A stretch of DNA of 64,000 nt, taken from Candidatus Omnitrophota bacterium. Its GTDB lineage: Bacteria > Omnitrophota > Gorgyraeia > Zapsychrales > Zapsychraceae. The notes under the pieces were generated by a model. The model did no database searches. It worked only from the letters and a program-made list of their open reading frames with translations, and was not told the DNA's origin. The stretch spans positions 5,355 through 69,354 of the forward strand of contig JANQMA010000013.1 in NCBI GenBank assembly GCA_028280285.1, written 5' to 3'. This document shows positions 18,850-62,088 of the stretch, piece by piece. Made by a program: the position numbers and the translations under genes. Every line of letters begins with the position of its first letter. Within the stretch, counting starts at the first letter, position 1.

Positions 18850-18888
18850 TTCTGTATCCCAGATGAGGGCAAATAGACGAAATCAACT

Positions 18889-20669: not shown

Positions 20670-20674
20670 TCATA

Positions 20675-21127: not shown

Positions 21128-21140
21128 ATATGTTAAAGCT

Positions 21141-40049: not shown

Positions 40050-40227
40050 GCTTAAACCCAGCCCCCAGAAAGTCCTTTACTACTATTTATAATATATATA
40101 AGTAAGATGATAATTGTGTGAAAGTAGTGTGACTTTCGTGTGAAAAAACACACTTTTACCCGAGACTTACCAGGACAAGCCAGGACACATATGGACAAAT
40201 AATACGACTCTGAAAGGTTTTAGGTTA

Positions 40228-40272
40228 TGGGTTTTAGGTTTCAGCCTCCTAACACCCAACACCTAAAACCTT
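40228..40272. repeat. 10-bp perfect inverted repeat GGTTTTAGGT...ACCTAAAACC immediately 3' of surface protein A
   Basis: Stem GGTTTTAGGT (40228-37) / ACCTAAAACC (40263-72); TAGG/CCTA-rich. Confidence 0.4.
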
Positions 40273-43200
40273 AAGGATTAGGATGGGTTATATGACCTTC
40301 TTGATCGACCAAATATATTTGGCCATAGTAGTAAATCTTCCACGCCGGATAAAAGAAGCTCCCCTCGATATAAACCAACTCCAGCTCAGCCCCTTGCATC
40401 ATTGTACGAATAAATTCTCTTCGTTCTTTGCGCGTTAAATCTTTTTGCAATAACTTTGATAAAAGACGCAGTGCTTTGCGTTTATTAACCGGCAAATATT
40501 TAATCGGTTCGCGAACCCAGGTGACTTCACGAAAAGCACCACTATCGGCATCAACAATGGCGATGACAACTGTTCTTTTCTTTAATGTTTTTCTTAGCTT
40601 TTTAAATATTTGTTTTTTCTCTTTGCGTTCTTCTCCGCTACGCAGCTTTACACTATCAGAATCATCATCTTTAAATTCGGTCACTGTTCGTGTCATACGC
40701 TCCTTCAACTTATCTTCATCCAACGGCTTATCAAACGCAACCAGATAGTAATCGCCTTTTTCCGACGAGACATAAAGCGGCTTGCGCGCAATAGTGTTTT
40801 TAAATATTTGCGCAAAGTCTTCGTCGTATGGAACCAATTGCTCTTCAATGCCATCCACGGCCGCTTGAATAATAACAAATGCATCTTCATCAATGTGATC
40901 ACGCACATAAACATTTTTTTCTGAACCATTTTCGAGCTCAATTGTTTTAAGTTGTAGGAAATTTTCAATGCGCTTTTTAAAACGAGGTTTGGCTTTAACA
41001 ACCCGCGCTTTATTTTCTGTTTTGGGCGGCTCAACAACCGCAACAAATTTGTTGAAATTTTGTTCTGTTGGATCAATTTTAGTCAACGGCAAATAATAAT
41101 TTTGGACAAACTGCTCGGCCGTTACAAATGTATTTTCACCAATACCTGACGGGGCTGGATCATTGATCCAAAAGCCGTGAATACCATAATCCTCGGCGGT
41201 AAAAGGGTCGTCCGTAGCCCGAACCCCTTTGACAACAACCCAGTTATTATAGTCCCCGCCAAACGGCACAGCTGCCGGAATATACACCGGATGACCGTCA
41301 ACACCCGATCCAAACGGATTGTCGCTCCCGCCACCAGCGGGATAAGACACCCATTTAGCAATTTCATTAAGTGCTTCTTCTTGAGTTGCAAGTGACTTCA
41401 TGCCGAAGTTGTAATGATAAGGAACAAAATCCGGATCGAGATTCTGAATCACTTTCCAAAGCCCGCGCATATCAAGGGCATTTAAATCGTCATTTACGCC
41501 GTAGTTAAACGGCTCGCCGAATTGAAATAATAGCTCCTGATTGCTGAGCTGCTCATCAAACAATTCCGGCGGACCATCTGGATGGTCGAACCGGTTCCAC
41601 CACATATATTGAATCAACATCTTGGCCACCGCCGGACCGCTGAATTTTTCAACCGGATCAGTACCGTTATCAAGCGACCGGACATACGGAAACTTATCGG
41701 CATTAAGAACAAAGTCTTCTGACTCAACCTCAATGAAAAAACTTTGTGTATCCGTGCCGCCATTGCCGTCATCGGCAGTGATAGTTAATTCGTACTTGCC
41801 GATATCTTCTTCCTTAGGCGTCCATTCAAAAAGACCGGTTGTGCCGTCAAAAGACGCATCGCCTGGCAGATTATTGAGCGCAAGAGCTACACTATCGCCA
41901 TCTTCATCGAAAACGCTGATAGTAAAACTCAAGGTTTGACCGACTTTAATTGTTTGATCACCAGGCCCATCGATCACAGGCGGCGCATTAACAACGATAT
42001 TTTTAACCGTTAAGGTAATTGTCTCAAAATCTTCTAATTCTCCGTCGCTGACAGTAAAAGTGATTTGATATGTGCTGTCTTCATCGAGCTCCGGGGCATT
42101 GGCAATAAATGTGTTATCAACAAAGCTCATCCAAGACTCAAGACCTTGGGCTGAAAAGATTAAAGTATCTCCATCAGGATCAGAACCACTAAGTGTAAAA
42201 TTAAGTGAAGCACCTTCATTAACGTTCTTATCACCAATTGAATCGAGCATTGGCGCTCGGTTAACATTACCTACACTGATTGTAATTGTTTCACTATCAG
42301 TGAGAGACCCATCGCTCGCTGTAAACGTAACACTATAATTACCTTCATCGCCAACGTCAGGATTCGCCGCAAAAGAAGTACCATCAAAGCTCATCCAATC
42401 TTCAAGGGCATTTGTTGAAATACTAACCCCATCGCCATCCGGGTCAGAGGTCGTTACATTAAAACTCAAATTACCGCCCTCTTCGACACTTTTATTGCCA
42501 ATCGTATCCAATACCGGCGCACGGTTTGTATTATTCACCGTTATGACAATAGTCTCTGCATCTGTGCCGCCGTTACCATCATCCGCTGTAAACGTAACAT
42601 TGTAGCTACCCGCATCATTAAAACCAGGGGTAGCCGAAAAGCTAGAACCATCAAAACTCATCCATGATACAAGACCTGAAGCTTCAATGATCACATCATC
42701 CCCATCCAGATCCGTTGCATTAACAGTGAAGTTTAATACTTCCGATTCATTAACAGACCTATTACCAATCGCACCTAAGACAGGCGGTGTATTACTAAAC
42801 TTATCAGTGACAGTAATTGTGATCGTTTCTGAATCTGTTCCGTCACGCCCATCATCCACCGTAAAGGTTACATCATATGCACCGGATTGCGTGGTCGTTG
42901 GTGTCCAGGTAAAGATGCGCGTGGCCGTATCAAAAATTGCACCGACGGGAAGATTGGTTGCCGAAAAAGAAAGCGGGTCGCTGTCAGCGTCTGACCCCGA
43001 AACAGTGAACCTAAGAAGCCCTTCTTCCTCAACCGTCTTATCTCCGATTGAGTTTAGTACCGGCTGAGTGTTAGCTTTTGCTGTAACCGTTATAGTAATT
43101 GTCTCTGAGTCCGTGCCGCCGCCACCGTCGCTGACATTAAATGTCACTTGATGTGTGCCGACCTGGGATGCAAGCGGCGTCCAGAAAAATGTATTGGTGG

Positions 43201-44107
43201 TTGTATTAAAGCTGGCGCCGATCGGCAGACTCGGTGAAGAAAATGATAAAGGATCACTATCAGGGTCTGTGGCCGTCACAGTAAAACTTAGATTACTTTC
43301 TGCCTCAACATTTTTATTTCCTATAGCATCCATTTGCGGTGGATTGTTGGGCTTGTCATTGACCGTAATGGTAATTGTTTCTGAGTCTGTGCCACCGCGG
43401 CCATCACTTACTTTAAATAGAACTTGATAGATGCCGGATTGATTGTCAGTCGGAGTCCAAGAAAACATCCTGCTATTTGCATCAAAAACAGCGCCTATTG
43501 GCAAAAACTCGGCTGAAAAAGTTAACGGATCATTATTAGGATCATTCGCACTAACCGTAAACGCCAACTCGCTTTCTTCATCAATCTCTTTATTCCCGAT
43601 GGAATCAAGAATAGGGCTCGCATTACCACCGCCACCGCCGGCAACCGTCACAGAACCATTTACTATGTTTTCAACACTGGCCGTTGCTGACTGATCACTT
43701 AAATCAAATTGAAGAAGATTAATAGGGGTTGTGCCCGTGGGTGCTGTATTTTTGATTTTAAATGTAAAAACCAATGCCTCGCCAGATACATCCGACACGG
43801 CGGAAAAGCTGAATTGCGTTACAATAACTTCTCCTTCTTCAGGAGAATGAGAATTACTGGCAAAGTCAGGAAACGTGGAACCATTCTCAACAGAAACAAA
43901 CTCCAAAACATCTTTATCCCAAGACAACTTGGTATCTATCCCGATGACATCAAGGTCATTATCCGAAAATTGAAGAGTTATGGTAATCTCATCACCCGGC
44001 ATACCGGACGCACTCGAAAGCTCTCCATCATAAGCAAAGGCATTAGCCGTCAAGGCAATGAAAAATAAACTAAGGAAAAGTATTTTTTTCACGAAAGCTC
44101 TATTCAC
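40271..44107 (-). CDS. Giant surface protein A (1278 aa): signal peptide, cohesin-like domain, 7 He_PIG (Ig-like) repeats, conserved C-terminal domain
   Basis: Signal peptide MNRAFVKKILFLSLFFIALTANAFA; cohesin-like YDGELSSASGMPGDEITITLQFSD...ALVFTFKIKN...NGSVTV. Repeats of the form P.LD.IGNK.V.E...L.FTVSA.DPD.DPL.FSA..LP.GA.FD..T..F.WTP...Q.G...V.F.VSDG.GGTDSETITITV. It overlaps the next gene (B) by 8 nt. Confidence 0.75.
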   Translation of the reverse strand: MNRAFVKKILFLSLFFIALTANAFAYDGELSSASGMPGDEITITLQFSDNDLDVIGIDTKLSWDKDVLEFVSVENGSTFPDFASNSHSPEEGEVIVTQFSFSAVSDVSGEALVFTFKIKNTAPTGTTPINLLQFDLSDQSATASVENIVNGSVTVAGGGGGNASPILDSIGNKEIDEESELAFTVSANDPNNDPLTFSAEFLPIGAVFDANSRMFSWTPTDNQSGIYQVLFKVSDGRGGTDSETITITVNDKPNNPPQMDAIGNKNVEAESNLSFTVTATDPDSDPLSFSSPSLPIGASFNTTTNTFFWTPLASQVGTHQVTFNVSDGGGGTDSETITITVTAKANTQPVLNSIGDKTVEEEGLLRFTVSGSDADSDPLSFSATNLPVGAIFDTATRIFTWTPTTTQSGAYDVTFTVDDGRDGTDSETITITVTDKFSNTPPVLGAIGNRSVNESEVLNFTVNATDLDGDDVIIEASGLVSWMSFDGSSFSATPGFNDAGSYNVTFTADDGNGGTDAETIVITVNNTNRAPVLDTIGNKSVEEGGNLSFNVTTSDPDGDGVSISTNALEDWMSFDGTSFAANPDVGDEGNYSVTFTASDGSLTDSETITISVGNVNRAPMLDSIGDKNVNEGASLNFTLSGSDPDGDTLIFSAQGLESWMSFVDNTFIANAPELDEDSTYQITFTVSDGELEDFETITLTVKNIVVNAPPVIDGPGDQTIKVGQTLSFTISVFDEDGDSVALALNNLPGDASFDGTTGLFEWTPKEEDIGKYELTITADDGNGGTDTQSFFIEVESEDFVLNADKFPYVRSLDNGTDPVEKFSGPAVAKMLIQYMWWNRFDHPDGPPELFDEQLSNQELLFQFGEPFNYGVNDDLNALDMRGLWKVIQNLDPDFVPYHYNFGMKSLATQEEALNEIAKWVSYPAGGGSDNPFGSGVDGHPVYIPAAVPFGGDYNNWVVVKGVRATDDPFTAEDYGIHGFWINDPAPSGIGENTFVTAEQFVQNYYLPLTKIDPTEQNFNKFVAVVEPPKTENKARVVKAKPRFKKRIENFLQLKTIELENGSEKNVYVRDHIDEDAFVIIQAAVDGIEEQLVPYDEDFAQIFKNTIARKPLYVSSEKGDYYLVAFDKPLDEDKLKERMTRTVTEFKDDDSDSVKLRSGEERKEKKQIFKKLRKTLKKRTVVIAIVDADSGAFREVTWVREPIKYLPVNKRKALRLLSKLLQKDLTRKERREFIRTMMQGAELELVYIEGSFFYPAWKIYYYGQIYLVDQEGHITHPNP

Positions 44108-47100
44108 TGTTTTCTTCAGTAGTTACATTATGGTTATGATCGACGATGTGGGTCTCACCATTAAAGGACACCCTCCAGCTCGGATAGTATACTTCCCCTG
44201 TATTAATCAACTCGGCCTCAGCTCCATTGATATTATTTACACCAAGGTGATCGGCAACTATCTGTAATGCATCAGCCGACTTAACCGGCAAGTAATTGAC
44301 AGGCCCCTGCGTCCATGTGATTTCCCTCAACTTTCCTGCAGAAGCATCAATAATCGCAACAGCTATGACGCCGTTTTGATCTACTGCTTCATCTGAAGGA
44401 GTAAAGGAAACAATGTAGTAATCACCTGTTTGTGATTTAACGAATAACGGCAGATTAACTTCAACATCTTTAAGTAGTTCAGCTAATCGTTCATCATACG
44501 CGACAACCTCACCCGTTACACGATCAGTAGCCGCACGGATTAATTCTTCGCTGTCTTCAACGGCGTAACTTAGCTGAGCCGTTTGCTCAACCACAGTACC
44601 GTATCCTCCTAAAGTCCCAGAATCAATCAACGATACATAGCGACCCCGGTTCGGATCATTGAGTGTGACATCAGTCAATGGAGCAACATAGTTCGCCGCA
44701 AACTCCTCGGCTGTGACATACGCTTGCTGGCCCAGTCCTGTAACGTGTGGATTCATAATCCAGAAACCATGAATGCCGTACTCTGCAGCCGCACTTGGAT
44801 TATCTGTTGCACGAACACCTGTAACCACAACCCAGTTGTCATAACTTCCTCCAACCGGCACTGCCGCCGGTACATACACCGGATGACCTTCACCCTGACC
44901 TATCTCTGTTGCCAGAAGATTAGCAATGTCGCTTAAAGCTTCTCGCTTAGACGTACGGCTGGCAATTATCCAATCGTAATTATACGGTGTATATGCCGGA
45001 TCAAGGTTTTGTAGTACGGTCCATAGACCCTGAGCATCCAGGCGGTCAAGCGTCTGATTAACCGCGTAGTTTTCCACCTGACCGAAATCAAATAAGGCCA
45101 ATTGATCGTTATGAACTTTTTCTGCATCTGTTGCAGGACCTTCTGGATTAACGTCTGCATTCCACCATAGATAATCTAATATCATCTGCGCTGCTGCTGT
45201 CGCACTATACTGCTTAATCAATTCATCTTCAGTTATTGTTTCTTCTTGCGCTGCAAAGCTTGCCTGCACATCTTCAACCGGCTCTAACTCCAAGCCCTTT
45301 GAACTGATTGCCGGCACATTAGAGAGGTTATTCGTAAATCCTTGTGCAGTGCTTGTCTCATATCGAACCGCTCCATCCGTCTGCCAATCCTGATTCACAA
45401 ACGACCAGACTTGCGCATAGACCGGATTACCGTTTAAAGGAATCTCAACTGTTGCCTGGGTTTGAAGACCAGCACTTTGGGAATAAATATCGGTTCCACC
45501 CGGCGTTGTTCCAATGGCAAACCAGTATTGTGCGGCATTGTTTTTCTGTTTCCAACTAAAAGTAACAGGAGAACTATTTAACGTCGAGCCCGGCTCAGGC
45601 GATGTTATCTGAGGATTATTTTCCGTATTGTACTGAACCGCCCCATCGCTCAGCCAATCCTGATTCACAAACGACCAGACTTGTGCATAGACCGGACTGC
45701 CGTTTAGAGGAATCTCAACTGTTGCCTGGGTCTGAAGACCAGCACTTTGGGAATAAATATCGGTTCCACCCGGCGTTGTCCCAATGGCAAACCAATATTG
45801 TGCGGCATTGTTTTTCTGTTTCCAATTAAAAGTAACAGGAGAACTATTTAACGTCGAGCCCGGCTCAGGCGATGTTATCTGCGATACAACCTCCGTATTA
45901 TATTGAATTGTTCCTTCTGTCTCCCAAACACCGTTCATTAATGTCCAGACCTGCGCATAGACCGGATTACCGTTTAAAGGAATCTCAACTGTTGCCTGGA
46001 TCTGAAGACCGGCACTTTGGGAATAAATATCGGTTCCACCCGGCGTTGTCCCAATGGCAAACCAATACTTTTGCACTCCTGATGTACTTGTCCAACTGAA
46101 TGTTACAGGCGAAGAGCTTAAAGTTGTCCCTGGTGATGGCGATGTTATTTGGGAGGCCTCAGCACCTGGATTCACCGTGATTGTAATCGTCTCTGAATCT
46201 GTAAGTTGTCCGTCGCTGACAGTAAATGTGACGCTATGATTACCAGCGTGTGCATTCGTAGGCACCCATCTAAACATTTTATTGCTTTGGGTAAATTCGG
46301 CACCAGGAGGTAAATTTTGTGCCGAGTATGTCAACGTATCTCCATTTGGATCAGTCGCGCTTATCGTAAAGCTCATATTTTGATTCGCATTAACGGACCT
46401 ATTGCCAATGGGTGCTAGTACCGGGGCCTGCTGCGGCACCGCTTCGACTGTAATGGAAACAATTTGTGCATCTGTACCGCCATTACCGTCACTTACATTA
46501 AACGTTACATTGTGTGTACCGATTTGACTGGCCGTTGGAAACCATCTAAACAGATTAGATTGTGCATTAAATTCGGCACCCGAAGGCAAATTTTGCGCTG
46601 AGTATGTTAGCACGTCGCCATCATCATCCGTAGCACTGACAACAAAATTAACATTATCGCCAACCCTGGCCGTCTTGTTTGGTATATTGTTAAGTACCGG
46701 CGGGCTGTTGAGTCCATTGACAGTGATCGTTATTGTTTGAGAAGAGCTTCCTCCATTAATATCGGAGGCAACAAATGTGACTTCGTGCACACCTTCCTGG
46801 TCAAATGTTGGCCGCCAAGAGAAAAATCCGCTAAATGAATTTACAACCGCGCCTTGTGGCATTTGTGCGCCGTATAATACTGTGCTGCCCTCTGGATCAT
46901 TAGCCTTAACAGTAAATGTTAATCTTTCCCCTATAGTAATTACTTGATTGCCAATCGGCTCAAAGAGGGGCGGAAGATTGCCATCGCGCTCTATAACAGT
47001 TATAGTAATCGTCTCTTCATCCGTACCGCCCTCTATGTCGCCGGCGATAAGCGTAATTTCATGTATACCTACTTGATCATCGGTTGGCTGCCAAGAGAAG

Positions 47101-48845
47101 GCACCGAATATATTCAAAACAGCTCCCTCTGGTAAATTGTTTGAACCGTATATGACAACGTTTCCATCAGGATCGGTTGCTTTTATGGTAAAAAACAATG
47201 TTTGACCGGCCTTGGCCGTCTTATCGCCTATCGGCTCCAGAATAGGCGGAAGATTGCCTCCGGCACCTGTAACTGTGATTGTAATCGTTTCAGAGTCGGT
47301 TAACTCACCATCACTAACATTGAATGTCACATCATGTGTACCAATTTGATTTGAACTAGGAGTCCAGCTGAATGTACGCGTGCTTGAATTAAAATCAGCC
47401 CCTGACGGAATTCCATTGGCTGAATAGCTGAGTGTATCTCCATCAGGATCCGTTGCGCTAATGGTAAAATTTAAACTGCTGTCTGCTGCAACATTTTTAT
47501 TTCCAATACCTGCCAAAACAGGCGCCCTGTTTTGTTGTGAAGTAACTGTGATCGTAATTGTTTCCGAATCCGTATCTTGACCATCGGTTACACTAAAGGT
47601 TACTTGATGGGTACCGGCTTGATTAGAAGTCGGCGTCCAATTAAATGTTCGCGTGTTTGGGTTAAAATCAGCGCCTGAAGGAGCATTGTCTGCTGAATAG
47701 GTAAGCGGATCTCCGTCTAAATCGGTTGCACTGATAGTAAAATTTAGATTATTTTCTGCCTGAACATTTTTATTACCTATAGTTGCTAACTCCGGCGGAT
47801 TATTTGGCTCCGAAGTAACTGTGACCGTGACTATTTCAAAATCTGTATCCTTGCCATCAGTTACGCTGAATGTTATATCGTGTGTGCCAATTTGAGCTGC
47901 CGTTGGCGTCCAACTGAATGTCCGTGTAGTTGGATTAAAGGCAGCACCCGTCGGTGTGTTTTCAGCAGAATACGTTAATACATCCCCTGCGTCCGGATCA
48001 ATCGCATTAATAGGGAAACTCAAATTATTGCCTGCCTGGACACTTTTATTGCCTATCGTTTGCAACACCGGCGGATTATTAACCGCTTCTGTAACCGTAA
48101 TCGTAATCGTCTCGGAATCTGTGCCGCCAGCACCATCATTAACATTAAAAATTACATCATGTGTCCCGATATCATTAATGCTTGGCGTCCAATTAAAGAT
48201 TCTTGTCGTTGGATTAAAGACGGCGCCAGTTGGTGTATTTTGGGCCGAATAAGTCAATGTGTTTCCATCAGGGTCGGTTGCACTGATAGTAAAATTTAAA
48301 TTGGCACCTACTTGAACACTTTTATCCCCAATCGCCGCTAATACTGGCGGTCGGTTTACCGAGCCCCCGGTTATTGTGATTTTTCCATCTGTACGGCTTG
48401 TCGCACTTGTTGTTGTCGTATCACTAAAGTCATATAATTCAAAACCAAGCGGTGTATCTCCACCCGGTGCATTGGCCTTAACCGTAAAACGTAATTTAAG
48501 CGATTCACCATTACCGTTGGTTGATACAGGAAGAGTTCCAAATTGAACAACAATCAATCTGTTAGCATTATTTGAGTCAACTAAGGCGGTAACATTAGTT
48601 AACTGAGCCGTATCGGCCCCGGCCACGGCACTGTCAAATGTAAGCACATTTGAGTCAAAAGTGACCACTGTATCGATACCTGCTAAGGCATCGGTGATAC
48701 CTCCCGCGTTGGTATAGTTGACCGAGATCTCAACCGTCTCTCCAGGGTCAGCTGTAGTACTAGATAGCGCACCCTCAAAGGCTAGTGCATTTGTGCTTAG
48801 CAATAATGTGAAGAATAAACTAAAAGATGCAATTAACTGTTTCAT
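44100..48845 (-). CDS. Giant surface protein B (1581 aa): signal peptide, cohesin-like domain, 8 He_PIG repeats, 3 near-identical 90-aa beta-repeats, conserved C-terminal domain
   Basis: Cohesin-like FEGALSSTTADPGETVEISVNYTNAGG...TFDSNVLTFDSAVAG...SLKLRFTVKANAPGGDTPLGF...DGKITIT. C-terminal domain ...HPVYVPAAVPVGGSYDNWVVVTGVRATDNP...YYPSWRVSFNGETHIVDHNHNVTTEE. Confidence 0.75.
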   Translation of the reverse strand: MKQLIASFSLFFTLLLSTNALAFEGALSSTTADPGETVEISVNYTNAGGITDALAGIDTVVTFDSNVLTFDSAVAGADTAQLTNVTALVDSNNANRLIVVQFGTLPVSTNGNGESLKLRFTVKANAPGGDTPLGFELYDFSDTTTTSATSRTDGKITITGGSVNRPPVLAAIGDKSVQVGANLNFTISATDPDGNTLTYSAQNTPTGAVFNPTTRIFNWTPSINDIGTHDVIFNVNDGAGGTDSETITITVTEAVNNPPVLQTIGNKSVQAGNNLSFPINAIDPDAGDVLTYSAENTPTGAAFNPTTRTFSWTPTAAQIGTHDITFSVTDGKDTDFEIVTVTVTSEPNNPPELATIGNKNVQAENNLNFTISATDLDGDPLTYSADNAPSGADFNPNTRTFNWTPTSNQAGTHQVTFSVTDGQDTDSETITITVTSQQNRAPVLAGIGNKNVAADSSLNFTISATDPDGDTLSYSANGIPSGADFNSSTRTFSWTPSSNQIGTHDVTFNVSDGELTDSETITITVTGAGGNLPPILEPIGDKTAKAGQTLFFTIKATDPDGNVVIYGSNNLPEGAVLNIFGAFSWQPTDDQVGIHEITLIAGDIEGGTDEETITITVIERDGNLPPLFEPIGNQVITIGERLTFTVKANDPEGSTVLYGAQMPQGAVVNSFSGFFSWRPTFDQEGVHEVTFVASDINGGSSSQTITITVNGLNSPPVLNNIPNKTARVGDNVNFVVSATDDDGDVLTYSAQNLPSGAEFNAQSNLFRWFPTASQIGTHNVTFNVSDGNGGTDAQIVSITVEAVPQQAPVLAPIGNRSVNANQNMSFTISATDPNGDTLTYSAQNLPPGAEFTQSNKMFRWVPTNAHAGNHSVTFTVSDGQLTDSETITITVNPGAEASQITSPSPGTTLSSSPVTFSWTSTSGVQKYWFAIGTTPGGTDIYSQSAGLQIQATVEIPLNGNPVYAQVWTLMNGVWETEGTIQYNTEVVSQITSPEPGSTLNSSPVTFNWKQKNNAAQYWFAIGTTPGGTDIYSQSAGLQTQATVEIPLNGSPVYAQVWSFVNQDWLSDGAVQYNTENNPQITSPEPGSTLNSSPVTFSWKQKNNAAQYWFAIGTTPGGTDIYSQSAGLQTQATVEIPLNGNPVYAQVWSFVNQDWQTDGAVRYETSTAQGFTNNLSNVPAISSKGLELEPVEDVQASFAAQEETITEDELIKQYSATAAAQMILDYLWWNADVNPEGPATDAEKVHNDQLALFDFGQVENYAVNQTLDRLDAQGLWTVLQNLDPAYTPYNYDWIIASRTSKREALSDIANLLATEIGQGEGHPVYVPAAVPVGGSYDNWVVVTGVRATDNPSAAAEYGIHGFWIMNPHVTGLGQQAYVTAEEFAANYVAPLTDVTLNDPNRGRYVSLIDSGTLGGYGTVVEQTAQLSYAVEDSEELIRAATDRVTGEVVAYDERLAELLKDVEVNLPLFVKSQTGDYYIVSFTPSDEAVDQNGVIAVAIIDASAGKLREITWTQGPVNYLPVKSADALQIVADHLGVNNINGAEAELINTGEVYYPSWRVSFNGETHIVDHNHNVTTEENSE
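45348..46160 (-). repeat. Three tandem near-identical ~270-bp (90-aa) coding repeats inside surface protein B
   Basis: Protein units QITSPEPGSTLNSSPVTF.WKQKNNAAQYWFAIGTTPGGTDIYSQSAGLQTQATVEIPLNG.PVYAQVW...W...GAV.Y.T repeated three times. Shadow ORFs on the plus strand (45344, 45602, 45872) recur with a 258-270 bp period, which shows high DNA identity. Confidence 0.85.
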
Positions 48846-48871
48846 TTTCTAACCTACCCCCGAACCCAACT

Positions 48872-51800
48872 TTATTCAATACTTTCTTCAGTAGTGACAT
48901 TATGGTTGTGATCAACAATGTGGGTCTCACCATTAAAGTACACCCTCCAGCTTGGATAGTATACTTCCCCTGTATTGATCAACTCAGCTTCAACCCCACC
49001 TAACTCACTTACTCCAATCTTATCACTCACTAATTGAAGCGCTGTTTCAAGATCCATCGGTTCATAATCAACCGCCTCTAAACTCCATGTCACTTCCTTT
49101 AATACACCACTCTGGGCATCAACCGCCGCAACAGCAATCACGCCCTTCTGACCCGTTGCCTCATCTTTCACAGTAAACGGCACTATATAGTAGTCGCCAT
49201 TCGCATCTGTAACAACCACCGGCAACTTCGCTCCGACACTCTTAAATACTTCCGCTAACCCTTCATCATATGCTACCACTTCATCCAACACTCCCGCAAG
49301 AGCTGCTGAAACCAACCTGTTAGCTTCCGTTATACTGTAATTGAGCCGATACACACTCTGTGTACTGCCATTAACTTCCACCTCCGTAAATACTTGCTCT
49401 ATATTAATCGGTGTATCAAGTTGTGTCTCTAACTCAGCAACAGATCCTCTGCGACTTCCTTCAATAGCTGCATCTACAATCGATACGTATCGACCATAAT
49501 GAGGATCTTCTATGGCTGTTTCTGTTAGTGCTGTAATATAGTTATCAGCAAATTCCTTTGCTGTCACGTACACTTTTTCTCCTGGCCCCTTAACCTGTGG
49601 ATTATTGATCCAGAAGCCGTTGATTTTATACTTTTCTGCTTCACTTGGATTATCTGTTGCGCGGACACCCGTTACCACCACCCACTGATCATAGCCTCCT
49701 TTAACAGGAACCGCCGCCGGTACATACACAGGATGCCCTTCTACTTGACCGACTTCTGTGGCTAGAAGATTAGCGATATCGCTTAATACTTCTTCTTTGG
49801 AGGCGCGATCAGTAATGACCCAATTGTAATTGTATAAATCACTCTCAGGGCCGTAGATTTGAAGCACTTCTTTTAGCCCCTTAGCGTCTAGGCGATTAAG
49901 TTCACTGTTGGCGGTATAGTTTTCCCATTGTCCTTCATCGAACAGAGTGATTTGATTGTTGTATGTTTCTTCTGCGTCTATGACCGGACCTTCTGGATTA
50001 ACGTCTGCATTCCACCACAGATAATCTAATATCATCTGCGCTGCTGCTGTCGCACTATACTGCTTAATCAATTCATTTTCAGTTATTGTTTCTTCTTGCG
50101 CTGAAAAGCTTGCCTGCACATCTTCAACCGGGTCTAACTCCAAGCCCTTTGAACTGATTGCCGGGACATTAGTCAGGTTGTTGAAAAACACTCCTGTCGT
50201 TGATGTTTTATATTCAACGGTACCCGTTGTCTCCCATGCTCCATCGATCAACGTCCAGAGTTGAGCATATAATGGATCTCCTGTTATTGGAAGACTCAAT
50301 TCAGGGGTTGATTGTGTTTCAACGCCCTCCTCTACTTCTATACCAAAGGTTTGGAGATAGATTCCGTTTTTTGCTGTCCCGATCGCAAACCAATATTTTT
50401 TTGCATCAGGTGACGCATTGAATGTAAAGGTTTGTTTCTCTTCAGTCAATGTTGTTCCGGGCGTTGGTGATTGTATTTCCGATATAACCGGTGGAAGATT
50501 TTCTGTTTGATATTCAACAGAGCCGGTTGTCTTCCACACACCATCGATGAGTGTCCATACTTGGGCATAAACGGGATTACCGGTTAATGGAACTCTAAGT
50601 GCAGGTGTTTCTGTCTCAAGCCCCATGCTAAACGAATGCAGATCAGTTCCACCCGCAACTGTCCCTAAAGCAAACCAGTATTGCCGTGCATCAGGGGATT
50701 CGGTGATTGTGAACACTTGTTTCTTCTCAGACAATGTCGTTTCTGCGGTCGGCGACTTAATCTCAGCCACAATGTCCGGAACATTTTCTGTTTGATATTC
50801 AACGCTGCCGGTTGTCTTCCACACACCATCAATGAGTGTCCACACTTGCGCATAAACAGGATTACCGGTTAATGGAATTTTAACCTCAGGTGTTTGTGTT
50901 TCAAGTTTCATACTAAACGACTGCAGATCAGTACCGCCCGCAACCGTTCCGAGCGCAAACCAGTATTCTGATGCATCAGGCGATTCAGTAATCGTGAATG
51001 CTTGTTTTTTGTTCGATAGCGTTGTTCCAGATGTCGGTGTTTGTATTTCTGAGATCACATCCGGAATATTCTGTGTCGTGTATTCAACAGCACCTGTTGT
51101 TTCCCACACATTATCAATGAGCGTCCACACTTGCGCATAAACAGAATTACCTGTCAACGGCACACTAAGCTCAGGTGTTGCTATAGTTTCCACATCGTTT
51201 TGGACAGGAATACCGAAAGAGTGTAAATCCGTTCCGCCTTCAGTTGTCCCGAGCGCAAACCAATATTGCTCTGCATCAGGCGATGCCGTTATTGTAAAGA
51301 TCTGTTTCTTTTTCGATAGCGCTATCGCCGTTGTTGGCGATTCAATTACAGAAATTATAGACCCCTCCGTAACAGTGATGGTGATCGTTTCCGAATCAGT
51401 CAACTCTCCGTCACTTACATTGAAGGTAACCATGAAGGTACCGGCTTGATCGACGGCCGGCATCCAGTTAAATGTACTTGGAGCAACTTCGTTAAAAGTC
51501 GCGCCTTCCGGTAGATTTTGGGCAGTAATATTTAACGGGTCTAGATCTGGGTCGGTTGCATCTACTATAAAAGTTAATAAGCGCCCCGTTTGTACTGATT
51601 TATTGCCAACCGGCGTGAGAACCGGCGGCCGGTTACCTATCACCGTTATTGTGATTGTTTCAGAATCTGTGCCACCATTACCATCGTCAACACTAAATAT
51701 TACATCATGTGTACCGATATCATTAATGGTTGGCGTCCAGCTAAATGTGCGCGTGGTTGAATCAAAATTCGACCCTGCAGGCGCATCTTCAGCAGAAAAA

Positions 51801-52660
51801 GTCAAATTATCTTCATCTTCATCGGTTGCATTAATAATGAAATTCAAATTATTTCCCACTTGTACTGATTTATTGCCAATGGCTTCCAACACCGGATCAG
51901 TGTTTGGTTTTTCAGTGACTGTGATTGTAATTGTTTCAGAATCAGTGCCGCCATTCCCATCATCAACACTAAACGTTACATCATACGTTCCGACATCATC
52001 AATGGTCGGCGTCCAGCCGAATACTTGCGTATCCACATCAAACTCCGCACCGGTTGGCAGATTTTCTGCCTTAAACGTTAAGTCATCTTCATCCGGATCA
52101 GTCGCACTAATAGTAAAGTTCAAACTGCGTCCAGCCTCCACACTTTGATTGTCAATTGGGTCCAAAACAGGATCTTGATTAACCCCGGTAACCGTAACTT
52201 TTCCGTTAGTAAGATTTGTTGCGCTTGTTGTTTGCGTGTCACTAAAATCATATAAACCAAAATTAAGCGGAGTATCGCCTCCCGGGGCGTTCGCTTTAAT
52301 CGTAAATTTAACCTTTGCCGACTCTCCGCTACCACTTATTGATATTGGAGTAAATCCAAACTGTGTGATAATTAATCTATTATCATCATTCGTATCTATT
52401 AAAGCAGTGACGCCTAGTTGAGCCGTGTCCGCTCCTGCCGAAACACTATCATAGGTAAGCACACTGGAATCAAAATTAATAACTGTATCAATCCCTGCCA
52501 GGGCATCGGTAATATCCCCTGCACCGGTATATGTCACCGAAACTTCAACCGTTTCTCCTGGATTTCCAGATACGCCGGATATTGCCCCATCGAAAGCCAA
52601 AGCTTCCGCCGTAATAATCAAACTGGCAATCATTATTAAAACAAAGAATATTTTTTTCAT
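48872..52660 (-). CDS. Giant surface protein C (about 1262 aa): signal peptide, cohesin-like domain, 3 He_PIG repeats, 5 divergent ~95-aa beta-repeats, conserved C-terminal domain
   Basis: Start reassigned to MKKIFFVLIMIASLIITAEALA (signal peptide). Cohesin-like FDGAISGVSGNPGETVEVSVTYTGAGD.... The C-terminal domain and the tail YYPSWRVYFNGETHIVDHNHNVTTEE are almost identical to those of protein B. Confidence 0.75.
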   Translation of the reverse strand: MKKIFFVLIMIASLIITAEALAFDGAISGVSGNPGETVEVSVTYTGAGDITDALAGIDTVINFDSSVLTYDSVSAGADTAQLGVTALIDTNDDNRLIITQFGFTPISISGSGESAKVKFTIKANAPGGDTPLNFGLYDFSDTQTTSATNLTNGKVTVTGVNQDPVLDPIDNQSVEAGRSLNFTISATDPDEDDLTFKAENLPTGAEFDVDTQVFGWTPTIDDVGTYDVTFSVDDGNGGTDSETITITVTEKPNTDPVLEAIGNKSVQVGNNLNFIINATDEDEDNLTFSAEDAPAGSNFDSTTRTFSWTPTINDIGTHDVIFSVDDGNGGTDSETITITVIGNRPPVLTPVGNKSVQTGRLLTFIVDATDPDLDPLNITAQNLPEGATFNEVAPSTFNWMPAVDQAGTFMVTFNVSDGELTDSETITITVTEGSIISVIESPTTAIALSKKKQIFTITASPDAEQYWFALGTTEGGTDLHSFGIPVQNDVETIATPELSVPLTGNSVYAQVWTLIDNVWETTGAVEYTTQNIPDVISEIQTPTSGTTLSNKKQAFTITESPDASEYWFALGTVAGGTDLQSFSMKLETQTPEVKIPLTGNPVYAQVWTLIDGVWKTTGSVEYQTENVPDIVAEIKSPTAETTLSEKKQVFTITESPDARQYWFALGTVAGGTDLHSFSMGLETETPALRVPLTGNPVYAQVWTLIDGVWKTTGSVEYQTENLPPVISEIQSPTPGTTLTEEKQTFTFNASPDAKKYWFAIGTAKNGIYLQTFGIEVEEGVETQSTPELSLPITGDPLYAQLWTLIDGAWETTGTVEYKTSTTGVFFNNLTNVPAISSKGLELDPVEDVQASFSAQEETITENELIKQYSATAAAQMILDYLWWNADVNPEGPVIDAEETYNNQITLFDEGQWENYTANSELNRLDAKGLKEVLQIYGPESDLYNYNWVITDRASKEEVLSDIANLLATEVGQVEGHPVYVPAAVPVKGGYDQWVVVTGVRATDNPSEAEKYKINGFWINNPQVKGPGEKVYVTAKEFADNYITALTETAIEDPHYGRYVSIVDAAIEGSRRGSVAELETQLDTPINIEQVFTEVEVNGSTQSVYRLNYSITEANRLVSAALAGVLDEVVAYDEGLAEVFKSVGAKLPVVVTDANGDYYIVPFTVKDEATGQKGVIAVAAVDAQSGVLKEVTWSLEAVDYEPMDLETALQLVSDKIGVSELGGVEAELINTGEVYYPSWRVYFNGETHIVDHNHNVTTEESIE

Positions 52661-52706
52661 TATATTTTCCTCGATTGATAACAGCTTTGATCGAATCATA
52701 TATTAT

Positions 52707-52920
52707 TTATTCTTCCACTGGAAATTTATCGATAAATGTCACTGTAAATTGTGCAATTAACGCCGCATCCAGAGCATTGATTCTTCCGTCACCGCTTACA
52801 TCCGCACGCACTTGCGCATCCGGATCAAGCGTAATGAATGTAACGGTATGCTGCGCCGTTAATGCCGCATCAAGCGCATTAATTGTTCCATTATTATTGA
52901 CATCGCCATAAGCGATATCG
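52707..52920 (-). other. Dockerin module (two 22-residue F-hand segments)
   Basis: GDVNNNGTINALDAALTAQHTVTFITLDPDAQVRADVSGDGRINALDAALIAQFTVTFI. Confidence 0.8.
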
Positions 52921-55334
52921 CCGCCACTATTACTGAAACCTGGTGTGGTATCGGGCAAATCAAACTTTTTACGTGTTTGTGAACCATCCGAAACACTGCC
53001 AAAAGACTGATTTGGCAACAAAAATTCTTTTGGCATAGTTGATATCGGGGCGTTATTCCTGTTTAGAAGCTCTATAACCTCACCTTCATTGTTAATTTGA
53101 AAATTTGTATGATAAGGCTGTGAATCGCTGTTAAGATTGGAAGCAAATACAAGAACAAACTCACCTGCACCCAAGGTGTGGGGAATTGGAAATGTCCATA
53201 CGTCTTTTTCATCACGCAGTTTAAGCCCCTTTAATTCAACGCTGAGAGGACCTTTATTATAAATTTCGATCCAGTCCTGAGGGATATTATTCTCATCCGT
53301 GTGACCACCTGTCGTGGTAGCAGATGAAAGCTCATTTATCACAAGCTGATTAGCTTCAGGGAGAGGATCTTCGCTGCTGTCTTCATTGGGATCCCTTGGT
53401 GTCGCATTAGTAAATACTTGAAACGAGACAGCCCCATCCGATGTGCGACCATAAGACTCATCCGGATTAAGGGCAGGTATTGGTATAGGCCCTCCAATAG
53501 GAGTTTTATCAGCATTTAAAAGCTTTAGTTGTTCACCTCCGAGTGCAAGTCCGAAATTAGTATGAAATTCTTGATTACCTTCTCCATTACCTTCGATCCG
53601 ATTTTTATCGGATGCCCAGATCAGTAAACGCTCAAGTCCGCCTAAAAGCTTTTGCGGAAATCTCCAATAAGTTCCTTGTTCATCCTGAAATAAAAGCCCT
53701 TCTAACTCAACTTGTCCACCTGAGGTATTATAAATTTCAATCCAGTCATTTTTCTGCCCATCACTGTCCAGAAAGGTACTATTGTTGTTTGAGACCTCAT
53801 TGATCACAATATTAGTTAATTCTGCCCGTGAAGGATAATCGTTGAAGTTGCGATTAGCGTCATCAGGTGTCGGCGAATTCCATAATCTAAAGGCTCCATC
53901 ATGATTAGAAGAAAGCCCCCAAGAAGTGTCCTCAGCCATTGGACTAACTGGAACAGCTTCAATAATCGTGTTGCCAGCATCTGAATTCATAAAAATAACC
54001 GTTCCGCCCTCATTCTTTTTAATAGAGAAATTGGTATGCGCTTCTTTCTTTCCTTGGGCATTGGTAAAAACCCCATTATCCCCGGAAAGGAAAACAACCA
54101 AATATTTTTGACTTTTAATTTCAATGCCGGAATTAGCCGGGAAAGCCCATATTTTTGAGCCATCGCTAATCTTTAGACCGTCCATAGAAATATCTTTGTC
54201 AGGACTCGTATTGTAAAATTCCACCCAATCATTGTAGTCATTTTCATAGTCACGCAGGCCGCTTTCATTGGCGATATTAATTTCGTTGATAATGATAAGG
54301 TCGGCGTTCGGATTCGCTCCGCCACCACCTGGCGTGCTTGGGTTTTTCTCACCCGGTGTCGGGGTTTGAATATTGGCCAATTGACCGACATCATCAAGCC
54401 GGCCCCAGGAAGTATTCGGGGGGATTCGTTCAACAACAAAGTCATCCACTGTAGGCGTTCCATCCGTATTTAACAGTTTTAGCGTCTCTCCTTCTGCCGT
54501 TATTTCAAAATTAGTATGAAGTCCGCCATTCATTTGTGTGGGGTGTTTATCTGAGGCAAATACAACCAAATGCTGCTTGGGACCAATATCCACATCCGGA
54601 AAGACCCACTGCTTACTGTTATCTGCTACGCGTAATCCTTTAAGGTTAACCGTAATGCTGCCATGTTCATTGTAAAGCTCAAACCAGTCATAAAACTTAC
54701 CGTCCTCAGCCTCATGACCATTTGTATTAGATGAAACTACCTCGTTGATTCTAACAAATTGCGCGTTTTGAACCAGAGGTGTTTGTGTGCTGATGTTAGA
54801 AGCTTTTATACTGGGCGTAGGCATTCGGACAAGTTGCGAACCACCATCCTGCGAACGACCGTATGATTCATCGGTTGCTGCTTGGAGTGTCGTCATACGG
54901 TCAACTTCATCCCCATCTGAATTTTTAAGTATAACCGTATCTCCGTTTGCACTTATTTTAAAAGGTAGGGAGTCACCTGTTAAACAATTGTCTCGATCAT
55001 TGGCCCAAAAAACCTTCCAGTTACCATCTTCACCCATTGTTTGACCTGCTCCAATAATTTGACCAGACGGAATCGTGTAGGTTCCCCCACCAGCATCCTC
55101 CAACACCCAATTTTGTAAATTAACGGCAACACCCCCGGTATTATAAAGTTCAATCCAGTCGGAATGATCCCCGCATGGATCTAAATAATCAGAAGATATT
55201 GTTCCACTATTAGAGGCCATGATCTCATTAATCACAATGTCTGCGTTTGCATTTGTTGATAAGGTAAGGAGAAAAGCTAAAATAAATACGGTCTGTTTAA
55301 TCATCGATTTTACATGGTTTACTTTGTCGTTCAT
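52707..55334 (-). CDS. Secreted protein with five lamin-tail domains (LTD) and a C-terminal type-I dockerin
   Basis: Signal peptide, then five repeats of INE(I/V)...DWIE(L/I)YN...L.GW.L.D......FP...(L/I)..G..LV(V/F). C-terminal duplicated Ca-binding segments DVNNNGTINALDAALTAQ and DVSGDGRINALDAALIAQ (D-x-N/D-x-N/D-G-x-x-N-x-x-D, then AAL.AQ). Confidence 0.8.
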   Translation of the reverse strand: MNDKVNHVKSMIKQTVFILAFLLTLSTNANADIVINEIMASNSGTISSDYLDPCGDHSDWIELYNTGGVAVNLQNWVLEDAGGGTYTIPSGQIIGAGQTMGEDGNWKVFWANDRDNCLTGDSLPFKISANGDTVILKNSDGDEVDRMTTLQAATDESYGRSQDGGSQLVRMPTPSIKASNISTQTPLVQNAQFVRINEVVSSNTNGHEAEDGKFYDWFELYNEHGSITVNLKGLRVADNSKQWVFPDVDIGPKQHLVVFASDKHPTQMNGGLHTNFEITAEGETLKLLNTDGTPTVDDFVVERIPPNTSWGRLDDVGQLANIQTPTPGEKNPSTPGGGGANPNADLIIINEINIANESGLRDYENDYNDWVEFYNTSPDKDISMDGLKISDGSKIWAFPANSGIEIKSQKYLVVFLSGDNGVFTNAQGKKEAHTNFSIKKNEGGTVIFMNSDAGNTIIEAVPVSPMAEDTSWGLSSNHDGAFRLWNSPTPDDANRNFNDYPSRAELTNIVINEVSNNNSTFLDSDGQKNDWIEIYNTSGGQVELEGLLFQDEQGTYWRFPQKLLGGLERLLIWASDKNRIEGNGEGNQEFHTNFGLALGGEQLKLLNADKTPIGGPIPIPALNPDESYGRTSDGAVSFQVFTNATPRDPNEDSSEDPLPEANQLVINELSSATTTGGHTDENNIPQDWIEIYNKGPLSVELKGLKLRDEKDVWTFPIPHTLGAGEFVLVFASNLNSDSQPYHTNFQINNEGEVIELLNRNNAPISTMPKEFLLPNQSFGSVSDGSQTRKKFDLPDTTPGFSNSGGDIAYGDVNNNGTINALDAALTAQHTVTFITLDPDAQVRADVSGDGRINALDAALIAQFTVTFIDKFPVEE

Positions 55335-55491
55335 GACAATAATTCCCTTTTCTTTTTTGAAATGATTAAATCGAAATTTAATTCTTCAGGCAGTATTTTC
55401 CCCCAATACCGCGCAGTCTTCGGATTCTACACTTCAACTATAATTTTCCTATATGAAAACCGTATGGCAATTATGTGAAAATACTGTGAAA

Positions 55492-56766
55492 CTAAAACTT
55501 GACCTGAATGTCTCCCTGATAAATTCGCTCAGGAAACTCTAAGGAGGAGTCGGAATTGATTTTTTTCGCATGGTAGTATGAAAGATTCGCCGTGACATTC
55601 GGCGCTAAACCAATGGTTAACTTACCATCATAGCCTTTAATTCCCGTCTGACCTTCATAGCGGTTAGAATTAGGGAATATGTCCGGAAACGCATCTTGTT
55701 CAAGGTGTGAGTATTGGCCTGTAAACTGCCAGTCGCCAAGGTATTTAACTTTTTGATTACCAAATTTAAGCCCTACTGACCAGGCTTTGTTGATTTTATC
55801 CGGCGCATCGTCATTTCTAAACCAGTCGCCGAATATCGCGATACGTTTAAATTCCTCATGTATCATTTTGCGATAACCTAGTTCAACAGAACCGCCCGAC
55901 ACCCTGAAGTTGTGTGATAAACTACCGGTACAATTCGTCCCGAATAGAGTTAAACCTGAGTTGCTGCATGCTGTGTCGTCGAGCCGCTTTCCTTTTAAAT
56001 GACGAAATTCATAGAAAGTTCCCGCCACCTTTGCATCAAAATCATTTATTTCAACCCCAACGCCCCCTTGTCCATAGATAAGCATCGGATCTTCTGTCGA
56101 AGCAGACAGTTCATCAATAGCCAGGCCGCCGGCATTACCAAATACCGTCACCTTTCTACCTATATTTTTTTCAAGGTGAAGAGCACCACCTTCCGGATTA
56201 ATATCACTGTCCCACAATAATGTTGTCGGTTTCCATATATAATCGTCTGCCTTCCATTTACCACCGACCACTTTCACCCATGGAAACGGTTTGTATTCCA
56301 AAAATCCATAATCAAGGCGTATGTCGGCTTTATCAAAGCTATCAGTAAAAGTCACATTGCCTGAACGTGAATCACCACTGCCGGTTGTAATCCCAATGCC
56401 GCCGGTGATATGTTTATTAATGCGCGAAATCAGACCTATACGCGCACGCAGACGTCCACGCTGACGGCTATCATCAATTCCTTTGCGTTTTTCATATTGA
56501 GTACGAAGACGAATGTCTCCTTTAAGCTCAATGCGCTGTACCCATTGGGGAAGACTAATGAGCCTTCCTTCAACCATATGCTCGGCCACATAACGCTTGG
56601 TTTTGTCTTTTAAAATCGTTGCCTCAATTTCGGACAAATATCCTTTGTCGACTAATTTTTCAATCAAAAGGTCATTATCGGAAATTTGCGCGTAACTTGT
56701 GGAAGGAAATACGGCGGCACCTGCAAGCAGTACGATAAAGATATATTGTAAAATTTTTATTTTCAT
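55492..56766 (-). CDS. Outer-membrane beta-barrel protein (porin-like), C-terminal Phe
   Basis: Signal peptide MKIKILQYIFIVLLAGAAVFPSTSYA, N-terminal helical/coiled segment, alternating amphipathic beta-strand pattern, and C-terminal ...QGDIQVKF (terminal aromatic residue typical of BAM substrates). Confidence 0.6.
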   Translation of the reverse strand: MKIKILQYIFIVLLAGAAVFPSTSYAQISDNDLLIEKLVDKGYLSEIEATILKDKTKRYVAEHMVEGRLISLPQWVQRIELKGDIRLRTQYEKRKGIDDSRQRGRLRARIGLISRINKHITGGIGITTGSGDSRSGNVTFTDSFDKADIRLDYGFLEYKPFPWVKVVGGKWKADDYIWKPTTLLWDSDINPEGGALHLEKNIGRKVTVFGNAGGLAIDELSASTEDPMLIYGQGGVGVEINDFDAKVAGTFYEFRHLKGKRLDDTACSNSGLTLFGTNCTGSLSHNFRVSGGSVELGYRKMIHEEFKRIAIFGDWFRNDDAPDKINKAWSVGLKFGNQKVKYLGDWQFTGQYSHLEQDAFPDIFPNSNRYEGQTGIKGYDGKLTIGLAPNVTANLSYYHAKKINSDSSLEFPERIYQGDIQVKF

Positions 56767-56835
56767 AAGATGTCGTTATCACAGTTGTCTACCCTTGGAA
56801 ACTCAAACACAAAGTATTTGAATAAAACAGGATTA

Positions 56836-61458: not shown

Positions 61459-62088
61459 ATGCAAAAGATTTCACTCAATCTACTTCTCTTTACTATCGGC
61501 ATTTGCTTCTTTGCCCATGCCCAAAATCTTTCATCTGAGTATTCTCCTTTAAATCCAGACGGCTCTGTGAACGCCCTCATTGAAATACCGGCGGGCACCA
61601 ATGAAAAATGGGAGCTGTCCAAAGACACACAAACAATCGCGCTAGAACATAAAAACGGCAAACCACGCATTATTCAATACCTTGGCTACCCCGGTAATTA
61701 CGGCATGGTACCTCAAACTTTGCTTGCTGAAGATCAAGGCGGTGATGGTGATCCGCTCGACATTCTTGTGATCGGCGCACCCGCCAAACGCGGAGATATT
61801 ATTCCGGCCAAACTGCTTGGCGTTTTAAAACTTCTCGATGATAATGAACAAGATGACAAATTGATTGCCGCCATGCCTGATTCAGTTTTCGCCAATCTTA
61901 ATTCCCTCGAGGAATTAGATCGTGGTTTCCCCGGCACTCTATCAATTCTTCAAACATGGTTTACTTATTATAAGGGGCCGAACGGCGGCATGGTCTTTAA
62001 AGGTTTCGGCACGCGCGAGGAAGCCTTAGCGATTCTTAACAAAGCTTCTGTTCCACAAACTCTTTCTGCTACTCAACAAACCAATTGA
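61459..62088 (+). CDS. ppa: Family I inorganic pyrophosphatase with N-terminal signal peptide
   Basis: PPase signature DGDPLDILV within EDQGGDGDPLDILVIG, plus N-terminal MQKISLNLLLFTIGICFFAHAQ. It is the only plus-strand gene; its 3' end overlaps gspG convergently by 20 nt. Confidence 0.8.
   Translation: MQKISLNLLLFTIGICFFAHAQNLSSEYSPLNPDGSVNALIEIPAGTNEKWELSKDTQTIALEHKNGKPRIIQYLGYPGNYGMVPQTLLAEDQGGDGDPLDILVIGAPAKRGDIIPAKLLGVLKLLDDNEQDDKLIAAMPDSVFANLNSLEELDRGFPGTLSILQTWFTYYKGPNGGMVFKGFGTREEALAILNKASVPQTLSATQQTN

Follow-up and report, generated by a model that had tools for sequence, protein, structure and literature searches.

What do cohesin and dockerin modules do in a locus that encodes no cellulosome? 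The question is raised by a stretch of 64 kb from a Candidatus Omnitrophota bacterium (contig JANQMA010000013.1), here called the window, in which a gene for a secreted array of lamin-tail domains (LTD) with a terminal dockerin adjoins three genes for very large proteins (giants 1 to 3), each starting with a cohesin. As the best explanation we propose that a conserved secreted protein, consisting of an LTD array, a stalk of immunoglobulin-like (Ig) repeats and a C-terminal (CT) module, is divided among separate genes here, with a type-I-like cohesin and dockerin as its non-cellulosomal joint; judged from sequence comparison, this is rather probable.

Domain scans covered the open reading frames (ORFs) of at least 120 amino acids (aa) in the window, ORFs 8879-9241 and 63483-63968 excepted. 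An earlier note made from the nucleotide letters had placed the four reading frames at 40271-44107, 44100-48845, 48872-52660, and 52707-55334, and these coordinates were confirmed, all on the minus strand. It had also named the dockerin gene as the next gene after the giants; the two are indeed adjacent, but the dockerin gene precedes the giants in transcription. The genes are tightly packed on this single strand, with intergenic gaps of 46, 26, and 7 nucleotides (nt) from the LTD-dockerin gene through giants 3, 2, and 1. The last gap follows if giant 1 starts, as it probably does, with the GTG at 44092 and not at the ORF end 44107; the longest ORF of giant 3 extends to 52699. In the order of transcription the four proteins are:

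52707-55334, minus strand: LTD-dockerin protein of 875 aa; signal peptide aa 1-31, five LTD at about 52926-55241, C-terminal type-I dockerin at about 52734-52910
48872-52660, minus strand: giant 3 of 1262 aa; signal peptide, cohesin 52178-52594, CT module 48875-50206
50207-52177, minus strand: stalk of giant 3; three He_PIG Ig repeats 51365-52177, four 'YWFA[IL]GT' repeats of about 95 aa 50207-51364
44100-48845, minus strand: giant 2 of 1581 aa; signal peptide, cohesin 48360-48779, CT module 44103-45356
45357-48359, minus strand: stalk of giant 2; about eight He_PIG repeats 46167-48359, three 'YWFAIGT' repeats 45357-46166
40271-44092, minus strand: giant 1 of 1273 aa; signal peptide, cohesin 43625-44035, seven He_PIG/cadherin-like repeats 41729-43624, CT module 40274-41728

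The N-terminal domains of the giants are genuine type-I-like cohesins. Located directly behind a Sec-type signal peptide, as had been noticed before, the isolated domains of giants 1, 2, and 3 matched PF00963 with 51.2, 37.2, and 43.3 bits (gathering cut-off 24.1 bits) over profile positions 5-139 of 139. The cohesin of giant 2 was absent from the scan of the whole protein even at E-values up to 1 and reached 37 bits as an isolated domain; in such scans, long repetitive proteins can mask a short terminal domain. Solved type-I cohesins (1g1k, 2vn5) were matched from end to end by a profile of the window cohesins (E about 8e-10). Furthermore, an AlphaFold2 (AF2) model, which was obtained for the giant 1 domain only (pLDDT 95.6, pTM 0.88), was all-beta and is predicted to adopt the nine-stranded beta-sandwich of the cohesin jelly-roll; a non-cohesin fold, which the earlier note had named as a refutation, was not found. 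Comparison of this model with the PDB by Foldseek gave cohesins for all of the best 50 matches, type I first, with TM scores of about 0.75-0.84, among them the non-cellulosomal cohesin 2xdh of Archaeoglobus fulgidus at rank 7 and the OlpA/OlpC cohesin-dockerin complexes 3ul4 and 4dh2.

The neighbouring LTD protein ends in a genuine dockerin. Its C-terminal module scored 49.3 bits against PF00404 within the whole protein and 54.1 bits in isolation (cut-off 22.9 bits), and it matched solved type-I dockerins (1ohz, 2ccl; E about 1e-9). It contains two near-identical F-hand segments, DVNNNGTINALD and DVSGDGRINALD, which had been quoted earlier as Ca-binding loops; in each loop D, N or S occupies positions 1, 3, and 5, A-L positions 10-11, and D position 12, and a helix comes next. 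By its sequence the module is a canonical type-I dockerin, and Ca2+ binding is predicted. The rest of the protein consists, as had been stated, of five LTD stretches (Pfam, 227 bits), and this array follows the signal peptide without a lipobox or anchor motif in the sequence.

The purpose of such a joint is suggested by relatives that do without it. Orthologs of the LTD-dockerin protein with 37-41% identity occur in L002, L005-L009, and L011. At L011 the same cassette is present, with a CotH-LTD protein 49.5% and a Porin_5 protein 49% identical to those of the window and a HEAT giant downstream; here, the fifth LTD runs directly into He_PIG repeats and on to the CT module, and neither dockerin nor cohesin is present. 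At L154 a Porin_5 gene is followed by P0009, a gap-free chain of 1384 aa composed of signal peptide, four LTD, three He_PIG repeats, and CT module. P0008 (1421 aa, gap-free) and P0011 are other single-chain LTD-Ig-CT proteins. Since the split in the window sits exactly at the dockerin and the cohesin, and both are missing together from the continuous chains, these relatives provide gene-fusion evidence for a physical association. Apparently, the joint takes the place of a peptide bond, as the relatives encode LTD array, Ig stalk, and CT module as one chain with neither of the two modules.

A survey of related loci for the same gene order revealed an LTD protein with a terminal dockerin, followed by a gene starting with a cohesin, at five other diverged loci (LTD bodies 37-43% identical), six including the window. 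At L002 genes for CotH-LTD, Porin_5, and LTD-dockerin proteins precede a gene for 1324 aa comprising a Pfam cohesin (PF00963), He_PIG repeats, and CT module. At L153 an LTD-LTD-He_PIG-LTD-dockerin protein is encoded 38 nt upstream of a gene that starts with a PF00963 cohesin of 54 bits. The remaining three are L005-L007 (one protein from three samples), L008 (from a Tara sample), and L009. Here, the dockerin at the end of the LTD proteins is a shorter variant, which scored 18-26 bits and exceeded the Pfam cut-off in two of three cases, and the next gene starts with a cohesin-like domain that aligned by hhalign to the window-type cohesins over 121 columns (probability 93%, E 3e-7). In the first pass of profile hidden Markov model (HMM) search these domains scored about 25 bits (E about 3e-6); the score of about 100 bits after iteration is inflated by their inclusion in the model. 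On this profile-profile comparison they appear to be remote homologs of cohesin.

Moreover, the six loci fall into two groups in which both modules change. The dockerins of group A (window, L002, L153) share 41-46% identity and those of group B (L005, L008, L009) 50-75%; identity between the groups is 23-34%. The cohesins divide likewise, with BLAST E-values of 1e-21 to 1e-33 inside group A and 0.003 or worse across groups. The LTD bodies are about 40% identical throughout, in both groups alike (38-43% to the window protein). As far as these identities tell, dockerin and cohesin subtypes switch together between the two groups of loci. Assembly of proteins by way of cohesin and dockerin, which the earlier note had suspected, is thus likely: conserved adjacency, subtype co-switching, and fusion proteins in relatives all make it quite probable that the dockerin and the cohesins of the window are a cognate pair.

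We propose the following sequence of events. The 5xLTD-dockerin protein and the three cohesin-starting giants would be exported by the Sec system; outside, the dockerin would plug into the N-terminal cohesin of a giant, presumably in a Ca2+-dependent manner. The resulting non-covalent chain would restore the N-to-C order of LTD array, stalk, and CT module found in the single-chain relatives, and with three cohesin carriers one LTD module could be mounted on three stalks and bases of different length. The product would most likely be an extended fibre of the envelope or surface, with a basal CT module and a distal LTD array, and a role of the complex in adhesion or attachment may be inferred.

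Several observations weigh against this explanation. The fusion at L011 crosses a scaffold gap of 100 N inside the repeats, with identical repeat sequence on both flanks. The cohesin-like domains of group B gave no match to the Pfam cohesin model, and a direct profile search of the PDB found no cohesin for them. P0005 (L003 10001-12688) is an ortholog with five LTD and a duplicated 'GGPDISDLTYLVSYMFSGGP' dockerin-like tail outside the Pfam calls; downstream of it lies an AsmA-like gene and no cohesin gene, an exception to the adjacency rule. Distant LTD-dockerin proteins from metagenomes mostly lack a neighbouring cohesin. Finally, the window has one dockerin for three cohesins, and the cohesin of giant 1 shares no more than 33-36% identity with its counterparts in giants 2 and 3; hence, not all three need bind the window dockerin. 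A metagenome scan with the LTD-dockerin alignment yielded distant LTD/CotH proteins only and no new syntenic locus, and a word-index homology search with the cohesin alignment gave no matches, at the sensitivity limit of the index.

The orientation of the proposed chain depends on the CT module, which comprises the last 420-485 aa of the giants. It matched no Pfam or NCBIfam family and contained no SLH or sortase motif. A word-index search with a CT fragment also gave no matches, owing to the limited sensitivity of that search; an exhaustive profile HMM search then showed it to belong to a family with at least 470 clusters (50% identity). The median distance between module and C-terminus was 0 in full-length matches, and most of the 151 members scanned end with the module. 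According to a genome scan, the family occurs in Phycisphaerae/Planctomycetota, Omnitrophota, ANME-1, and ANME-2 (anaerobic methanotrophic archaea), Methanobacteriota, Thermoplasmatales, Micrarchaeota, and others, and a crude test found an N-terminus resembling a signal peptide in about 76% of its full-length members.

An AF2 model of the CT module (pLDDT 90.3, pTM 0.91) predicts a C39/papain-like alpha+beta fold, followed by two helix-plus-sheet PepSY-like lobes in the C-terminal half; when the whole model was compared with the PDB by Foldseek, nothing meaningful was found beyond weak matches of PepSY-type propeptides. All three giants carry Ser at the expected position of the nucleophile (30 Ser, 23 Cys, and 15 Thr among 78 family members) and Asn at that of the His (60 Asn and 9 His of 78), both positions being set by sequence motifs and not by structural superposition. 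An active C39 peptidase was rejected for the giants, as Ser and Asn occupy the motif-inferred Cys and His positions; for the same reason, their CT module is most likely a non-catalytic binding domain.

In 40 members of the family the N-terminal passengers included Ig stalks, beta-helix/NosD domains, cohesins (in five), and peptidases of the C25, S8, C1, M14, M28, and Trypsin_2 type. A first scan detected cohesins in 8 of the 152 top members, and a more iterated model in 11 of 151. Where an explicit sorting or anchor signal is present, it comes after the CT module: six proteins have tails that by eye look like those of the type IX secretion system (T9SS), and two have a dockerin. Because such signals directly follow the CT module, and because very different N-terminal passengers share it, we infer that it forms the basal end and the LTD array the distal end, which is the weakest step of the model.

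Some members combine the modules in other ways. P0125 is scaffoldin-like, with three cohesins interleaved with He_PIG repeats in addition to the CT module. P0207 unites cohesin, CT module, and dockerin within 606 aa and could self-polymerise. P0166 (L040) has two dockerins ahead of the CT module, and P0212 has a dockerin behind it. One metagenome-assembled genome of Methanobacteriota (JAZDGT01; L050-L068, L071) contains at least 20 CT-module genes, several of them in tandem arrays of three or four large genes. In ANME loci (L018 6786-21297 from ANME-1 G60, L038, L027, L019) genes with a dockerin at the end alternate with genes that have a cohesin-like domain at the start and, in some cases, a CT module at the end; the dockerin genes of L018 show CARDB, beta-helix/NosD, and Dockerin_1 domains confirmed by Pfam, and the cohesin-like calls come from our own HMM, with no match to the Pfam cohesin model.

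The opposite orientation, with the LTD array next to the cell as anchor or adaptor and the giants, with their CT modules, as distal adhesive heads, is nearer to the earlier note and to the planctosome model, a hypothesis that attributes outer-membrane tethering to an LTD (PMC6461901). Although a C39-like pseudo-peptidase could indeed serve as a ligand-binding head, we regard this orientation as doubtful: T9SS-type tails or dockerins sit right after the CT module where they occur, one module common to very different N-terminal passengers is a pattern typical of a basal module, and the LTD array lacks lipobox and anchor motif behind its signal peptide.

A degradative complex of cellulosome-like or planctosome-like kind, in which the cohesins would capture enzymes with dockerins (peptidases, lyases) from other parts of the genome and the LTD-dockerin protein would be just one of many cargos, appears quite unlikely. 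Assemblies of this kind have been proposed for Planctomycetes (PMC6461901) and Cloacimonadota (PMC8542988), peptidase domains are found on CT-family members elsewhere, and the dockerin genes adjoining cohesin-like-CT genes in the ANME-1 locus L018 bear CARDB and beta-helix/NosD domains. In the scanned ORFs of the window, however, the sole dockerin is that of the LTD protein and no hydrolase was found, each carrier has one cohesin, and the fusion homologs join precisely LTD to stalk and CT module. That cohesin and dockerin are non-binding homologs, the cohesin being just another Ig-like stalk domain and the adjacency a sign of shared cluster ancestry, is very improbable, because, even though a partner is not known for many cohesins and dockerins outside cellulosomes (PMC9012536) and the dockerin-like tail of P0005 has no cohesin neighbour, in six loci the cohesin invariably opens the mature protein and the gene before it invariably ends in the dockerin, the subtypes of the two modules switch together, and fused versions lack both modules together.

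Returning to the joint between LTD array and giants, a bolder proposal, which we hold to be unlikely, concerns its wider use. The CT module may be an undescribed envelope-binding pseudo-peptidase of bacteria of the Planctomycetes-Verrucomicrobia-Chlamydiae (PVC) type (Omnitrophota, Phycisphaerae) and of archaea (ANME, Methanobacteriota, Thermoplasmatales), with cohesin and dockerin acting as a mix-and-match device that allows a single LTD 'head' to sit on one or another stalk and base, by which an episymbiont or predator would attach to host or prey cells. If this were true, cohesin and dockerin would have evolved here for the splitting and recombining of adhesins and not for enzyme assembly.

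The four genes belong to a longer series. Every gene between 22.9 and 61.4 kb of the window lies on the minus strand, and the order of transcription is 305-aa protein, CotH-LTD, Porin_5, LTD-dockerin, giant 3, giant 2, giant 1, 3561-aa HEAT protein, and 2169-aa protein. A scan of 39900-59800 for promoters and terminators gave results no better than shuffled sequence. Upstream of the LTD-dockerin gene the following are encoded:

60499-61416, minus strand: 305-aa protein without a family match; L002 and L009 have a weakly conserved counterpart (30% identity) in this place
56836-60393, minus strand: LTD / CHB_HEX_C / Fn3_assoc / CotH / Flg_new_2 / LTD protein of 1185 aa (CotH-LTD); conserved, first large gene of the cassette
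55492-56766, minus strand: Porin_5 outer-membrane beta-barrel of 424 aa (Pfam PF16930, E 1.9e-38)

Homologs of the CotH-LTD protein with about 50% identity occupy the corresponding position in L002, L009, and L011, and the Porin_5 gene also lies directly 5' of the LTD gene in these three loci (49-53% identity) and in L154. Both genes probably work in the same process as those of the LTD-dockerin protein and the giants; it is uncertain whether the 305-aa protein belongs to the cassette. Just 5' of the cassette lies a gene for a GspG-type pseudopilin (T2SSG and N_methyl; 62069-62488), and this protein or the Porin_5 barrel could bear on export or anchoring.

Among the giants, giant 1 is the paralog nearest to the orthologs at other loci (44-45% identity to the giants of L010 and L011), and giants 2 and 3 have the 'YWFAIGT' repeats in addition. 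The repeats of about 95 aa ('YWFA[IL]GT ... VYAQVW') belong to no Pfam family; three related ones were found in the L002 giant. The genes for the 3561-aa protein (29364-40049, with a weak HEAT_2 match only) and the 2169-aa protein (22934-29443, with a phosphoglycerate-kinase fragment and HATPase_c) overlap by 80 nt. The N-terminal 400 aa or so of both match one region of L010 and L011 with 43-46% identity, which suggests a common N-terminal domain. Homologs come after the cassette in L010 and L011, and in L154 the corresponding place is taken by an unannotated giant longer than 3583 aa; the two window proteins resemble 'Archaeovorin'-type proteins of Omnitrophota. Additionally, the window encodes, at 17728-22817 just downstream of the giant genes, a cluster with GGDEF, response-regulator, methyltransferase, AHSA1-like, and histidine-kinase genes, and further away a bacterial SET-domain protein (8354-8851) and a radical SAM protein resembling spore photoproduct lyase (16331-17698).

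Non-cellulosomal cohesins and dockerins are widespread, yet their partner and purpose usually remain obscure; here, the pair can be named from genomes alone, and a rationale is implied, the joint standing for a peptide bond in a conserved secreted LTD-stalk-CT protein. As a system the locus is small and open to direct testing, comprising a single dockerin, three cohesins, and two groups of specificity. It also draws attention to the uncharacterised CT pseudo-peptidase module of about 400 aa and to the CotH-LTD/Porin_5 cassette, which are common in uncultured PVC bacteria and methane-cycling archaea.

How does this locus compare with known systems? The modules lie outside a cellulosome context, as had been noted before: no glycoside-hydrolase family was detected in any of the scanned window ORFs, nor any family of carbohydrate-binding modules (CBM), and there is one cohesin per protein. 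A cellulosome was therefore rejected, given single cohesins, no CBM, and no dockerin-bearing carbohydrate-active enzyme (CAZyme) in the window. Cellulosomes normally combine a large carrier of cohesins with smaller partners that bear dockerins, and the anchoring scaffoldins OlpA, OlpC, and SdbA of Clostridium thermocellum begin with one or few cohesins, continue as a long linker, and end in a distinct module. The giants resemble them in all three respects, and their partner ends in a dockerin with two F-hands. Hence, the claim that the locus reverses cellulosome logic finds no support: large carriers with smaller dockerin partners are the normal arrangement, and a single N-terminal cohesin on a long protein recalls an anchoring scaffoldin. 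The giants differ from these scaffoldins in having no SLH domain but a predicted C39/papain-like pseudo-peptidase with PepSY-like lobes as CT module, and a He_PIG stalk; moreover, the cargo in the window is a non-enzymatic LTD array, the host is of a Gram-negative PVC type, and CAZymes and CBMs are missing.

The novelty of the arrangement had also been overstated, since non-cellulosomal systems are known (PMC9012536; PMC6461901): as cited there from Peer et al. (2009), cohesin and dockerin modules occur outside cellulosomes across the three domains of life. Such modules are present in organisms that break down no cellulose; for ANME archaea a role in exterior protein attachment or cell-cell contact was proposed (Chadwick et al. 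2022, PMC9012536), and ANME-1 loci share with the window the CT module and the adjacency of dockerin and cohesin genes. Cohesin-dockerin complexes have also been discussed for Cloacimonadota (PMC8542988). In contrast to earlier non-cellulosomal modules, those of the window can be assigned to each other as a cognate pair by their synteny, their co-variation, and the fusion homologs, at the level of confidence given above.

For Omnitrophota only dockerins were reported and proposed as adhesins (PMC10066038). The dockerin-type giants of this lineage (West-Roberts et al. 2023, preprint) are at least 30,000 aa long and contain numerous dockerin and TSP3 repeats; a cohesin partner was not reported for them. 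The window shares with them (West-Roberts et al. 2023; Seymour et al. 2023) non-cellulosomal dockerins in the same broad lineage and large HEAT proteins next door, comparable to 'Archaeovorins'. Identity of the LTD-dockerin protein with such a giant was rejected, as it has 875 aa, one dockerin, no TSP3 repeats, and identifiable cohesin partners.

Two further systems combine LTD with these modules. In the 'planctosome' hypothesis for Nemodlikiaceae (Andrei et al. 2019, PMC6461901) an LTD protein carries a cohesin, an adaptor has both modules, and the cargo consists of peptidases with dockerins. The window resembles this assembly, itself hypothetical, in its PVC-superphylum host, in an LTD protein together with cohesin and dockerin proteins, and in a lack of cellulose degradation; it differs in that its LTD protein bears the dockerin and not the cohesin, and in that neither an adaptor nor a peptidase was found in the locus. 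In the C. thermocellum cellulosome Cthe_0239 is an LTD-LTD-Fn3-CotH-dockerin protein and CseP (Cthe_0044) a CotH-dockerin protein (PMC6083626). As in these, LTD and CotH are associated with a type-I dockerin in the window, where the CotH-LTD and LTD-dockerin proteins are neighbours, but CotH and dockerin sit on separate proteins.

In the literature searched on non-cellulosomal systems we found no description of an LTD array and a CT module as partner domains of cohesin and dockerin, and in the searchable literature none of the conserved cassette, of a cognate pair derived from fusion homologs, of an LTD cargo, or of the CT module. Thus, the use of cohesin and dockerin outside the cellulosome was known already, and new here, as far as the searched literature tells, are the cassette, the assignment of a pair by fusion homologs, the LTD cargo, and the CT module.

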